Positions 23,407 through 62,479 of a stretch of DNA of 64,000 nucleotides are shown here, piece after piece. The DNA is from Octopus sinensis (taxonomy: Eukaryota). The notes under the pieces were generated by a model. The model worked only from the letters and a program-made list of their open reading frames with translations, made no database searches and was not told the DNA's origin. The DNA lies in assembly GCF_006345805.1 (NCBI RefSeq), contig NC_043002.1, forward strand, positions 51,398,001 to 51,462,000. The letters run 5' to 3'. Position 1 is the stretch's first letter. Every line of letters begins with the position of its first letter. The position numbers and the translations under genes were made by a program.

Positions 23407-23545
23407 TGTGTGCGTGTGTGTGTGCGTGTGTGTGTGCGCGTGCGTGCGTGTATGTGTGTTTGTGTGTATCATTGCGAGTGAGCGTGTATATTTTTTGTGT
23501 GTATATGTTTGTGTAGCTATATATGTATACATATATATATATATG

Positions 23546-23618
<73 letters not shown>

Positions 23619-23740
23619 GTATATATATAGCTACACAAACATATACACACAAAAAATATACACGCTCACTCGCAATGATACACACAAACACACATACACG
23701 CACGCACGCGCACACACACACGCACACACACACGCACACA
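23407..23740. repeat. Perfect ~117-bp inverted duplication around a (TA)n centre
   Basis: Arms ~23407-23524 and ~23624-23740 are exact reverse complements, including non-repetitive atcattgcgagtgagcgtg. Confidence 0.9.
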
Positions 23741-23823: not shown

Positions 23824-23915
<92 letters not shown>

Positions 23916-24019
23916 TATATATAATATATATACGAGTGAATGGACAAATGAAATACGGGCACTCAACAAATTTATTGACAGTTACATGTCTGGATAAAAA
24001 CAGTTTGATTCAAATTCGT

Positions 24020-24060
24020 TGGTACTCTTAAGCTTCAAGTGCGATGCTAGTCGTCAGCCA
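24020..24060 (-). ncRNA. Hammerhead-like motif (GAAG variant), left arm of the 23991-24175 fold-back
   Basis: Minus strand tgg-CTGACGA-ctagcatcgcactt-GAAG-cttaagag-TA-cca. Confidence 0.6.
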
Positions 24061-24105
24061 TTTTGAATTTGAAGCTGAATTATTAATTTGAATTAAAATT
24101 CAAAA

Positions 24106-24146
24106 TGGCTGACGATTAGCATTACGCTTGAAACTCAAGAGTACCA
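24106..24146 (+). ncRNA. Type I hammerhead ribozyme candidate with a canonical core
   Basis: tgg-CTGACGA-tt-agc-attac-gct-t-GAAA-ctc-aa-gag-TA-cca; stems I-III form, GUA site at 24141-24143; stem I can extend through aaattc/gaattt. Confidence 0.75.
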
Positions 24147-25004
24147 ACGAATTTGAACCAAACTATTTTGATCCATAATATATATATATATAAAGGAAAC
24201 AACTATTTCGAATGAGACACCATATTAGTTTTCATTTAGTTTTGCTTACCAACTGCGGTTGGTAATGAGCAGTTGACTAAATTATTATTTTCTTGTGAAG
24301 ATCTGGTGTTCTGAAGTGATTATGCAATCGTCTTTATAACGATTATTGCACAATATACTAGTATACGCTAGTGAAACACGTGTAAAGACTACGTAATTTA
24401 TGATGTTCTAATGAAGTGTTTAACAGAACCTCCTGTTTTATTCCTTTGTAGATATATTCTATAATAAGCATTACATGGAAAACGCACCGGAGATTTATTG
24501 CTGATAATGTTTGTCTGTGACCAGTTTTATGACGTCAATGTACCAGCAAACATTCCTATTATTACCATTGTTGTCATTGCCGACACCCAAGACTACAAAA
24601 GACTACAAGCATCACATTTTAAGCCATGTGATATCAGCAGAAGGAATTAAATCTGCAAAAGAACTCACTGTGGGAAAATGTTGTTGTTGTTGTTTTTGGT
24701 GTTGGTGGTGGTGGTGGTGGTGGTGAGTGATATTTAACTCCAGGTCATCTCTAAACGAGCAGGCTTATCTCTGATCAGAGGATTTGACGATGACCAATTC
24801 TGTCTTTAGGACTACATTTCACAGCATTACTTAACGTGTCATTTGGAGGAGATATGGCTGCTGTCTCATTTTCTCTAGTCTATAGTTATTTTGGTGATGG
24901 GACCAATTATGAAAGCAATGTATTTGTGATCGTTTGTCGTTATGGTTACACGCAAAAACATACGCACATGTATATATGAGAAAAGAAATTAAAGAAATAT
25001 AGGA

Positions 25005-43065: not shown

Positions 43066-46000
43066 GTATGGCACATCATATGTGATGTGATGTGTAAAGT
43101 CATGTGGTGTAGTGAGGAGAAGAGGGGGAGGGGATAAGAGGGGGGAGAGAAGGGGAGGGGAAGAAGAGGGGGAGGAGAAGGGGGAAGAGGAGAGGATGGG
43201 GAGAAGGAAGGGGAGAGAGGGAGCAGAGGGAAGGGGAAGAGGGAGGGAGAAAGAGGGAAGAAGGGAAGGGGAGTAGGGGTGAAAAGATGAAGGACTGAAG
43301 AAGTAGGGGTCGGGGGGAGAAAGGATAGGTGAGGAGGGGGGAGAGGGGGTTAGATGAGGAGGGGGGAGAGTTGAGACCAAATGGCGTATAAGAGCGAAGA
43401 GAGAAGATTAATTCCTGTTCACGGCGCAAACGGGAATCCGGATGGCCTCTGTGTAAGGACAAACCGAACACAGATAGGTGTTGCAAGGAGTGACCGGTGG
43501 AGCGGAAATGGCGTGAGACCGGTGTGTCGTTCGCAAGGTGGATGTCACGAAGGTGTTCCGCGAACCGGTCAGCCAAGCGGCGTCCCGTTTGTCCGATGTA
43601 CAAGGAATGCCAGAGAGAGCAAGAGATGCAATAGATAATATTGCTGGAGGTGCAGGTGAAGGAGTGGATGATGGGATAGGGTCGATGGTGGGTGCTAGTG
43701 AGGCGTGGTGGTGTTGGAGAGGTAAGGGCAAGTGCGGCAACGTGGGCGGGAGGAGGGGAACGAGCCGGGTGGGAGGTAGGGTCAGGGAAGGAGCTATGGA
43801 CCAAAAGGTCTCGAAGGTTGTGGGCTCGTTTGAAAGAGGGGAGGGGTCGGTTAGGGAAGAGGTGTGAAGTGGACGGGTCGGACTGGAGATGACGGAAAGC
43901 TCGAAGAATGGTGCGTTGGAGACGTAGGGTTGGGGGGTGTAAGTGAGGGGAAAAGGGAGGCGGGAGACTACAGGGCGGGTTCGGGGAGAGAGAGCAGATA
44001 CACGGTCCACGGACCGTGCTCTGGCAAGGGCGGTGTGGATAGTGGTGAGGGGGTATCCACGTAGGGTGAAGTGGTGAGCCATACGTTGAGACTGAGTCTC
44101 AAAGTCATGGTCGTCACTACAGAGCCTACGTAGACGGGGAATTGGGAATAGGGGATGGAAGCTTGGTGTGTTCTGGGTGGAGGAAGAGAAGTTGAGGTAT
44201 GAGTGTGAGTCTGTGTGTTTGTAGTGAATGGAGGTGGTAAGAGTGGAGTGAAGAATGCTAACCGAAATGTCGAGGAAGGAGACAGAGGTGTTGGAGATAG
44301 TGGAAGTGAAGTGGAGGGCTGGATGGAAAGATTGGACGAAAGAGAGGAAGGAATCTAGATGTTCGCGGGAGAGTGAGGTGGCACCGATAATGTCGTCAAT
44401 ATAACGACCATATAGTTCAGGAGTGGGACCAGTGAAATATATATATATATATATATATAGATATATATATATATATATATGATATATATATATATATATG
44501 CGTGTTGATCAGTCTCTCGGTTTAGCAGTACCACCTGGCTTCTTGGGTCCTTTTAGTAAAGTCCGCTGTTTCAAGCATTTCCAGAAGCATTCTCGGAAGC
44601 CCTGTAAATGGAGATGGGCGCTGCTTTCTCTCTTACCTAAAAGTTAAAAACATATCTAACACCTGAAGGATCACATAACCTTTTGACAAACTGCAAGCAA
44701 TCTATAGAAAGCTGCTGAGTTATTTTTTTACTCTGATGGAATAGTTTGACAATAACTGGGACAATAATGTGTATGCACGTGTGTGCGTATGCACGTGTGT
44801 GCGTATGCACGTGTGTGCGTATGCACGCACGCGTGCTTTTGTTTGTGTGTATGCGTTTGCATTTTTTTCTTTTACTAGTTTTACTCATTTGAGTGGTGCA
44901 ATGTCGAAAGATTGCATGCTGTAACTTTAATCTTGTGTTCGTTGGCCTCTCCTTACACTCTCGCACAGTTTTATTCCCTATTGCCCCCGACATACTCGCT
45001 TATTAATACTCACTGACCCTTATCACCTGCGTCCATTATGTTCAAAACTAAGGGACAAAAGAAAAGAGATATATTATATATTTAATCCATCACAAGGTCC
45101 AGCCCTTATTGTGGTGTGGTGGCTTCTATATTCCAATGCTCTTGAGAAGTATGCCAGCAGACCACAAGCTCCTGGTAGACCTTCCTATGCTAGACGGCCA
45201 AAAGATAGAGGCCAGACTAATATGGGCTATCTCTTCCCAGAGGTAAAAATAGATTAGCATAGAAACAACACCTCTAACTATGAAAAATAAATTTGCAGAA
45301 TCATCGATGGCGATTCAAAACAATCAAGACTTGAGAGAGGAGAAGACAACCCAGAGTGGAGAACTGTAACGAAATGTTGTGGAAGGCTGATACTCAGTAG
45401 GGATCGGAGGGTTCAATTACAAACAACAAATGTGTTTAATATATTATCCACAATCGCTCTGTGCGTTTAGAATTACTGTCATGTTACATATTTTTCCGGC
45501 ACTACCAAACCCTCAGTTGAAGCGAAATTTCTTTCTGGCGGAGGAGTAGTCTCGAAACATCAACCTTGTCTTTTTCCATACTGCACGGGAATATCATTGT
45601 ATAATTTTTGACGAAGCAAGTTCCTCCGGTTCCTTTCAATATTTACTTTTTTGCACTAGCTGGTTGATTTTTTTTATGTTAAGAAAATGTACTTGGGATC
45701 GATTCATTCGACTAAACTTTTTCAAGGTGGTGTCTCAGGATGGATGCAGTTTGAAACAAGTAAAAGATCAATTTTGGAATGCTTTTGATCATGTCTGCTC
45801 AATCGGAGCTGACCTGGACGTAAACAATAGCAATGGATCCTGTTATATTATAATGTTAGCATATTTAAAACACTTTATGTCTACATCTTCGATGAAGCGT
45901 TCAGCAAACTGGCGAACCTCCTAAATAACAGCCAAATCTCCCTCAAACTACACCTTTACAGCATAGATTTTTAAATTTATTTTTAAACAAAAAAGTTGAT

Positions 46001-59894: not shown

Positions 59895-60610
59895 AATAAA
59901 AAATGGAGTTAACGCAGGTTTAAACAAGTATTTTTTCTTTCTACATATGTTTCAAAAATTCCACTGATACTTATTCAAAAGAATAAAAGGTATAAACAAT
60001 GCAATCTTCTCTTCGGGAAAAAACGAAACTTGTCAATACGACATTTTAGCAAAAAATGATGGATTCGTTATAGCGATAGACAGAACGCTATTAATATTGT
60101 TTAAAAAAACGTTATATGATATAACGTCATAAGTAGCTAACAGAAAGAGTAGGGATATTAATAGTGAATGTTAAATATAAAGGAAATTAAAGTCTAAACT
60201 ATATATAATGATAGAGACTACTTATATGCACTAAAAGTATGTTTTTGCCAATGCTTACATCTGTATGCTCGTTCTATAACCGTGTTTACTAGAGTATTTT
60301 TAGAAAAAATAATGAAAAATAGCTCAGAATTGCAGAGAAGACAGAATTTCTTGCCTTTGTCATATGATATCGAAATTGAGAGGATCAACCATTCCAAATT
60401 AAATTGCTCATTGTGGTCTTTTAAATTCCAAATCAGTTTGCTGAGACCGGTACTATTCCGTTTATTTCTATCCCTAAATGTTGAGTAATGGATAGAAATT
60501 CTCTTAGATAACTCTAACGATGTGCTTCCAATGTAAAATTGTACTTTATTACGAGTACTGATTATACACTGGTATATAGAATTTTTAATCTTAGAGTTAC
60601 TTGACATAAA
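59893..60610 (-). mobile_element. Penelope-like 3' fragment: GIY-YIG with C-terminal CxxC/CxH motifs and a 3' repeat ending at (TA)n
   Basis: SIYQC..FYIGST..KRISIH..TF..STGLSKLIWNLKD..FCLLCNSE..RCKH in ORF 60218..60607. Confidence 0.85.
59938..60020 (-). ncRNA. Hammerhead-like motif with a long stem II (U4C variant)
   Basis: Minus strand tttc-CCGAAGA-gaagatt...aattttt-GAAA-catatg-TA-gaaa; palindromic stem III ACATATGT. Confidence 0.55.
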
Positions 60611-60964
60611 TTTAATTCTATTGGGATTGACTTCAGATACAATAACCTTGTTATTAATATTTCTAGAGGGTTGGATGGTAGTAGCTAAATTAATGTTAGT
60701 ATTAGTAAATGTATTAATATTTAACAGTTTGTTATTATGAGAAGATATATATGAGGTGCATTCAAAAGTTCAGAATTAACTAATTAAGTTTTTGTTCGTT
60801 CTATGTTATAATTGGCGTTCCTCATGAATTTTCATTTTCGTGGTTTAGGTTTTAACTGGCCTTTCTAGCATGTAAGAAATCTTGTCAATGGTCTCCTTTT
60901 TGTGCATGAAAATATTTTATATACTCATATATATATATGAAATATATGTATATATGTATGTATG

Positions 60965-61680: not shown

Positions 61681-62189
61681 TACATGAATGCATGCATGTA
61701 TGTATGTATGTATGTATGTATGTATGTATGTATGTATGTATGTATGTATGTATGTATGTATGTGTGTGTATGTATGTATGTATGTATGTATGTATGTATG
61801 TATGTATGTATGTATGTATGTATGTATGTATGTATGTATGTTTGTATGGAAGAATGTATGTAAAAATGTTACGTTTCAGAGGAATGCACGGAACCTGAAT
61901 TTTCGACTCGGGTTAAATATAATAAACTACACCAAATGCTTCTGAGAGTATCTGCGTAATCGAGTCACAACAGAATAGCTTGAACTGTCATCAAGTTGTG
62001 TAAGTTATAATAATGAAGTCAATATTTTGAAATGTATTACCGGACGAAGGTCTTGCGTAACGGATGTATTACCAATTATATATTATGCAATGCTCTGAAA
62101 CGTATGTATTAAATGCTTTCAAATATCATTATTTGGTTTCACTTCATTATTATAACTTTGCATGAGCATTTATGTTACTCTCTGCGTAT

Positions 62190-62248
62190 ATTCCACTGAT
62201 GAGGCAAAGCATTTCTAAATGCAAAGTCAGAAATCCGGGATCTGGAAT
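62190..62248 (+). ncRNA. Type I hammerhead ribozyme candidate
   Basis: attcca-CTGATGA-ggc-aaa-gcattt-ct-aaatgc-aaa-gtc-a-GAAA-tccggga-TC-tggaat; 6-bp stem I, stem III ATCC/GGAT, AUC site. Confidence 0.7.
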
Positions 62249-62479
62249 TATCCAGTAATTTTTTACTAGCTTTATTTTGTCTTTTTGTCTTCTCTCCTTG
62301 TGATGTATGGGCATTTAATGTGGTTTTAGAGTCAGATCTTGGCTGCTATTTTCAGCATGGCGGTATCTCTTAGGTTTTATTATAATTTTAATAATAATTA
62401 TTACCTTTGAAGGTTTTAGTTCCATGCTGGCCACTTGGTAAGATCGTTATTTACTTTAAATTAGCGATCTTGTCCTTAT

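Follow-up and report, generated by a model that had tools for sequence, protein, structure and literature searches.

A hammerhead-bearing palindrome in the Octopus sinensis genome probably built from two truncated ends of a Penelope-like element

The palindromic unit and its surroundings

The window analysed here is a stretch of 64,000 nucleotides of the Octopus sinensis genome (NC_043002.1, positions 51,398,001 to 51,462,000). It contains a non-coding palindromic unit that begins beside a (TA)n tract, likely the target microsatellite (23865 to 23932), which adjoins the end of a 58-nt one-sided tail on the minus strand (23933 to 23990). The tail lies between the two fixed outer ends of the family copies and carries an AATAAA at 23976 to 23971. 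It is followed by a direct, 5'-truncated pLTR copy on the minus strand (23991 to 24073), a locus-specific 18-nt junction filler that is partly copied from neighbouring arm sequence (24074 to 24091), an inverted, tail-less pLTR copy on the plus strand (24092 to 24175), and a further (TA)n tract at the inverted end (approximately 24176 to 24191). Counting element positions back from the tail end, with 23933 as -1 and the element sense on the minus strand of the window, the direct copy spans -141 to -59 and the inverted copy -142 to -59. Position 24092 (plus strand) is the A of the parent's TCATTC and coincides with the family-wide truncation edge discussed below.

Recomparison of the roughly 80-bp inverted arms (23991–24070 and 24096–24175) confirmed nine differences in 80 positions, eight of them transitions, and the arms extend inward to 24073 and 24092, leaving only the 18-nt filler between them. 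The one-sided tail and (TA)n flanks of this non-coding unit were confirmed as well. No target-site duplication is readable at the unit within the (TA)n microsatellite. The whole unit folds into a rod of -114.8 kcal/mol (z -18), and none of 200 shuffled sequences folds as well.

Several other features lie in the same window. A 138-nt inverted duplication (23407–23544 and 23603–23740), 97% complementary and arranged around (TA)n about 190 nt from the unit, has a non-repetitive core found only here in the genome; it is likely a local fold-back event, with an assembly artefact as the alternative. A Penelope-like fragment at 43100–44508 (minus strand) encodes an RT thumb and a CCHH-type GIY-YIG endonuclease, by our reading Neptune-like, and an endonuclease fragment at 60218–60769 (minus strand) belongs to a second, more distant Hydra-like family. 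Finally, a hammerhead-like motif at 62189–62249 (plus strand), with its core from 62196, a 6-bp stem I and a UC site, stands about 250 nt before a CA/TA tract and is possibly the end of another Penelope-like element.

Hammerhead motifs

The inverted copy contains a predicted type I hammerhead ribozyme (HHR) on the plus strand (24092–24158). Its core motif (24109–24143) reads CUGACGA, GAAA and a GUA cut triplet, so that the type I core CUGANGA/GAAA/UH is intact, with cleavage predicted after 24143. Stem I is formed by 24092–24101 with 24149–24158 and by 24106–24108 with 24144–24146, stem II by 24118–24120 with 24126–24128, and stem III by 24134–24136 with 24139–24141. The core bases are 24109–24115, 24130–24133 and 24142–24143, with an extra base at 24116 and a U-U at 24117/24129. 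The original prediction described this arm as a canonical type I HHR; the core, the GAAA and the GUA site stand, while stem II departs from the canonical form, as it has only 3 bp and one extra base and opens with U-U in place of G10.1-C11.1. The direct copy carries the sister core on the minus strand (24023–24057, predicted cut after 24023), and here the predicted GAAG variant was recovered: A15.1 is changed to G at 24033, which breaks the type I core and, judging from this substitution, likely leaves the minus-strand core inactive.

A structure-aware HHR scan recovers the plus-strand motif over a background of 0.1 matches per shuffled 64 kb and misses the minus-strand GAAG motif. The Rfam search suggested with the original prediction returned no hammerhead family at E≤5 over 4 kb or at E≤10 over 115 nt, the output holding only sub-threshold miRNA and snoRNA matches, and the lowest-energy fold of the isolated right arm is not a hammerhead. 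Comparison of copies from two subfamilies, A and B, shows that stem pairing is kept in 90.9% of cells, compared to at most 42.9% in slid controls (14 rows). In stem I, two base pairs differ between the subfamilies at both partners, which amounts to two events; in the same 14 rows there are no double changes in stems II and III.

Among Hydra-like relatives from other animals, U-U also replaces G10.1-C11.1 in 14 of 39 HHR sites, which are not independent of one another; these include L253, L258, L263, L269, L288, L309 and L311, and their stem II sequences vary. The U-U looks like a conserved clade variant of Hydra-like HHRs. Natural U10.1-U11.1 variants exist, and the mismatch supports cleavage according to the available part of PMC3088659. 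The HHR motif occurs in these relatives as 82 matches at 78 loci, nearly all on the gene strand. The fold kept in subfamily B and these gene-strand matches together indicate that selection acted on the HHR motif in the parent lineage. The ribozyme likely mattered for the RNA of the parent and not for the present copy.

The parent element

The unit combines the pLTR and tail end of a Penelope-like retrotransposon of the Hydra clade with an inverted copy of the same end that lacks the tail. A search of the 2.72-Gb genome gave 1272 first-look candidates, of which 40 were scored. Copies run on for 150 to more than 1000 nt past the arm into a common body, which in the longer copies encodes broken RT and C-terminal endonuclease pieces. 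These broken copies preserve the layout of a single gene in which RT comes first and a GIY-YIG-type endonuclease lies at the C-terminal end, and none of those examined has an intact RT-endonuclease frame. At one locus (L056), pLTR, tail and gene start occur in order; the tail is thus the stretch between pLTR and gene. In the parent, both fixed outer ends are followed by TA, and in full-length copies the tail continues into the 5' end of the gene.

The family shares the marks listed for the Hydra clade (section 11 of PMC8557442), namely DKT, C-x-C-x5-C, CxxC..EK, CxH and no CCHH. The DKT motif is found in L056, L057 and L066, the CxCx5C linker in L052, L064 and L070, and the CxxC..EK and CxH region in L051, L061 and L066; CCHH is absent from the endonuclease pieces of the family. 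At the position of the N-terminal RWK, L056 reads CWKAF, and a strict RWK[AV] is present in 9 of 28 long relatives. The family also has the HHR within the pLTR and the preference for (TA)n targets. A protein search with one 258-aa fragment found 63 relatives at E≤0.001. Of these, the 28 with at least 660 aa have DK[TS] in all cases, and the linker motif and CxxC..EK in 25 each; the endonuclease part aligns to a 721-aa relative with E 9e-33. Pfam gave nothing above cut-off for the family fragments or four relatives, nor did PDB for one relative, so the clade call rests on motifs and a by-eye comparison with the published protein alignment rather than on a tree.

Palindromes across the genome

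Many copies also carry an inverted tail-less copy, of differing length. The original prediction asked whether the complete palindrome recurs as a family with common ends. The palindrome does recur at many loci, so it is not the one-off that was named as fatal to that view, and its outer ends are common; its centres, however, vary. Among 59 head-to-head pairs, the centres differ from locus to locus and show trimming, short homologies and filler copied from nearby, the one exception being a tandem duplicate pair (L072) with identical centres. A strict two-arm pattern found six loci with five different centres. No common unit that includes the centre was found among the copies, nor is there a tandem head-to-tail array of HHR monomers at the unit, the pairs being head to head. 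Five loci (L025, L088, L119, L127 and L145) are joined exactly through both HHR stem I strands, and such joins leave one ribozyme between short inverted repeats. In a census of 89 arms, described below, 25 belong to short two-ribozyme palindromes and 16 are short without a near partner. The overlap between samples gives a rough estimate of at least several hundred arms and about a hundred two-ribozyme palindromes. Contigs of sequencing runs that we guess to be RNA hold family-like pieces, which cannot place starts, ends, strand or locus and therefore count on neither side.

The ribozyme cores of these copies decay neutrally. Counting differences from the commonest letter of each column, 32 of 384 core bases (8.3%) are off consensus, compared to 193 of 2231 other bases (8.7%; p 0.92). 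Both cores are intact in 8 of 39 palindromes, with 7.0 expected, in a set that includes loci picked by core-containing patterns. Outside CpG sites, the arms are about 7% diverged.

These observations bear on the proposal that the unit is an amplified, non-autonomous ambisense hairpin whose RNA alternates between a rod and a self-cleaving state and makes use of both ribozymes. Three parts of that proposal are supported: the HHR motif is real, the origin is Penelope-like, and there is an inverted pLTR together with a tail. The recurrence of the palindrome agrees with it too, as do the 25 of 89 arms in short pairs with both arms reaching the core, the common outer ends and the HHR structure kept between subfamilies. 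However, the differing centres, the lack of core selection or of an excess of doubly intact pairs, the mutated minus core at 24033 and the stability of the rod indicate that this is not an amplified switchable element. Folds that hold an HHR cost 61 kcal/mol (plus) and 68 kcal/mol (minus) relative to the rod, a gap above 60 kcal/mol in either case, and a whole-unit transcript holds only one HHR, on either strand preceded by its own antisense arm, which is transcribed first. Moreover, the 44 tail-anchored arms include no end at -93 to -80, the interval spanning the predicted cut site at -90; four tail arms of about 86 nt outside that sample are stem I joins, indistinguishable from run-off at the cut site. 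Functional ribozymes of both polarities under selection are not borne out, given the mutated minus core and the neutral decay. The ambisense reading is thus largely refuted, and we regard it as highly improbable. A DNA-transposon (MITE) reading was also considered and is ruled out by the one-sided tail, the variable centres and the continuity with an RT gene.

A sharp truncation edge at -142

The census takes in each of the 89 places where a 33-nt piece from the ribozyme's 3' half is matched exactly, sampled without regard to structure. Four rows were corrected by eye: two that overextended 10–17 nt into the partner arm, one that was mis-extended and one with an internal deletion. Fifty-five arms stop at or inside -142, four at -150 to -200 and 30 beyond -240, while the interval from -143 to -149 has no arm end. 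With the five stem I joins set aside, 60 arms are at risk and 26 of them stop at -142 to -136, whereas none of the remaining 34 does so in the following 7 nt (Fisher p 1e-6). The edge recurs in subfamily B: of 27 arms, 15 terminate inside the homologous base or no more than 9 nt from it, the following 27 nt contain no ends, and 12 arms reach beyond. In the tail-anchored sample of 44 arms, 31 end at -143 or inside, three at -159 to -182 and nine are long; five arms are shared with the first sample, and one more is an overextended palindrome. Two candidate causes were rejected: ribozyme cleavage, as no end in the tail-anchored sample falls around the cut site, and a splice acceptor, as the short arms have no common upstream exon and subfamily A has no AG at that place.

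Position -142 is both the A of TCATTC, an initiator-like motif, and the first base, or foot, of HHR stem I. TCATTC is kept in subfamilies A and B, and the bases upstream of it differ. Of six full-length relatives from other animals that were informative, three start no more than 2 nt away from the A of a similar CAT motif; these three represent two related families plus one, and 7 of 13 two-pLTR loci were dropped as their contigs start inside the pLTR. Upstream of related HHRs, a strict initiator is weakly enriched (10 of 39 compared to 4.7 in shuffles, maximum 13), and a looser CAKT occurs in 20 of 39 (compared to 8.1, maximum 18), the sites again not being independent. Within the arms, AAAATGGC lies 11–18 nt downstream of the edge (24101–24110, plus strand), and subfamily B keeps only AATGGC of it. 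We take AAAATGGC to resemble a YY1 site, presumably at the position where human L1 has one. From an edge on the initiator-like TCATTC at the foot of stem I, we infer run-off at a transcription start, a reading toward which we lean slightly.

Because -142 is also where stem I begins, the edge and the inversion could instead arise from structure. In that case stem I would make the cDNA stall or fold back, or priming would take place on an antisense template, and the first arm would serve as the template for the second. The five arms joined exactly through stem I complementarity fit such a process, and self-priming has been proposed for rotifer Penelopes in the available part of PMC3846280. Non-majority variants are also common to both arms of a locus more often than by chance (23 compared to 6.7, maximum 17 in 2000 permutations), although such sharing is expected equally from one RNA template for both arms or from later conversion, and arms of one locus are on average only slightly closer to each other than arms of different loci (mean distance 0.119 compared to 0.133, p 0.08). 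A fold-back copy should moreover reach the tail end, whereas the inverted arms stop 58 nt short of it at TA, and partnerless arms (among them L135, L144, L136 and L148) also stop at -142 to -136, directly against the microsatellite. We therefore consider an origin from structure unlikely, though still deserving of attention.

A further alternative is a short non-autonomous RNA, running from -142 to the tail with an internal promoter, that is mobilised in trans in the manner of a SINE, with the palindrome rebuilt at each landing. Most arms are short (55 of 89), short copies would retain an internal promoter, and non-autonomous pLTR-derived elements have been described (PMC8557442; bioRxiv 10.64898/2026.07.22.740005, each in the part available). 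A separate short template would also fit the full-length copies in the genome that do not start at -142: 15 of 30 gene-start loci carry a pLTR piece in front, and none of these 15 pieces starts at -142 to -136, the starts scattering from -62 to beyond -409. However, the 30 short and 29 long arms are not set apart by any column, the commonest base being the same in all 29 columns compared, and short and long arms occur in both subfamilies. In the one tested element of PMC11167929, as far as the available text goes, priming depends on gene sequence that lies downstream of the tail, a stretch absent from short copies. A SINE-like template is thus improbable in our view.

Proposed formation of the palindromes

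With its identity to an element end, its parent gene, its two outer ends at TA, varying centres, neutral core decay and the limit at -142, the unit very probably consists of two short head-to-head copies of a ribozyme-bearing Penelope end, likely made in one event at (TA)n. An inverted 5'-truncated copy with a one-sided tail is a described insertion form (PMC8557442 and PMC3846280, in the sections available). The unit is an ordinary, dead-end insertion, and its family is new within a known clade. The literature searched holds no description of this Penelope family or of a fixed truncation edge, and the family may be catalogued in Repbase or Dfam.

In the pathway that we propose, the endonuclease would nick both target strands at (TA)n. 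One of these nicks would prime synthesis at the tail end and its counterpart at a site 58 nt inward, the two sites lying close to the mRNA's 5' end, at the boundary of pLTR and gene. Both cDNAs would then stop by run-off at -142, the start of the template, and end-joining through microhomology would trim them, add filler and unite them head to head, with an HHR on each strand as a passive outcome of the inversion. Priming near the 5' end of the mRNA followed by run-off is suggested by in vitro data from a related clade, in which nicking and extension affect both strands and the tail is set by two internal start sites (PMC11167929, available part), together with an internal pLTR promoter, such as that of the tested Drosophila Penelope (PMC2377424, available part). 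A linear template beginning at -142 does not predict the scattered gene-linked pLTR starts, and a second pool of templates, either tandem read-through or circular RNA, would thus be needed for the long copies.

The mini-palindromes may be fossil strong-stop products, in which reverse transcription ran off at the transcription start after 142 or 84 nt and the two cDNAs were joined; we give this an even chance. Long and tandem copies would then call for the RT to switch templates, or for an RNA that is tandem or circular. If the strong-stop reading is correct, genome sequence would suffice to locate the start site of an extinct element, read off from its palindrome centres, and every palindrome would contain a pair of internal promoters facing outward.

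The available part of PMC8557442 (section 15) names the origin of inverted and tandem Penelope-like structures as an open question. The inverted layout is already published; what the present analysis adds is the sharp, replicated truncation edge. This limit of the short arms yields a base-precise prediction, an RNA 5' end at -142, and argues for uncut rather than ribozyme-cut RNA as the template in vivo.

Comparison with known systems

The family resembles the Hydra clade as described by Craig et al. 2021 (PMC8557442, sections available) in its DKT, its CxCx5C linker, the absence of CCHH, and CxxC and CxH around a conserved E and N, as well as in its pLTR HHR, (TA)n targets, inverted truncated copy and one-sided tail. 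The tail differs in length, being 58 nt here compared to 30–40 nt in that clade, and the fixed truncation edge is unmentioned in the available text. The octopus member listed there, Hydra-1_Obim, has a different HHR row, and the present family is thus distinct from it; three short motifs of our family have no occurrence in the available supplement.

In Schistosoma mansoni, Penelope-like elements form pairs of HHRs on opposite strands, 100–700 bp apart, which were interpreted as truncated elements (Cervera and de la Pena 2014, PMC4209133, available part). Their minimal HHRs likewise have an extra base before stem II and a short, near-palindromic stem III. In contrast, the cores of the present unit are about 50 nt apart, and its stem II opens with U-U, whereas the available text of the S. 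mansoni study reports G10.1-C11.1 as highly conserved.

Priming has been studied in vitro for the Poseidon element PAc (Frangieh et al. 2024, PMC11167929). In the part of that study available, nicks are made and extended on both strands of AT-rich targets, the tail lies between two internal start sites, and gene-side RNA is needed; HHR cleavage is dispensable, uncut RNA being the main template. PAc belongs to another clade, and its HHR overlaps the start codon, whereas in the present family both the HHR and the tail precede the gene. The text available treats neither palindrome formation nor run-off at the RNA 5' end.

The unit is similar to Avsunviroidae and non-LTR retrozymes in having HHR motifs within a small non-coding unit. 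Viroids carry HHRs in both polarities. Unlike these systems, the present unit has no tandem monomers, no constant unit and no sign of replication at the RNA level, and its rod is a near-perfect inverted duplication. The viroid likeness is a by-product of inverting a ribozyme-bearing end, and face-to-face hammerheads in animal DNA or contigs can mimic ambisense viroid-like RNAs.
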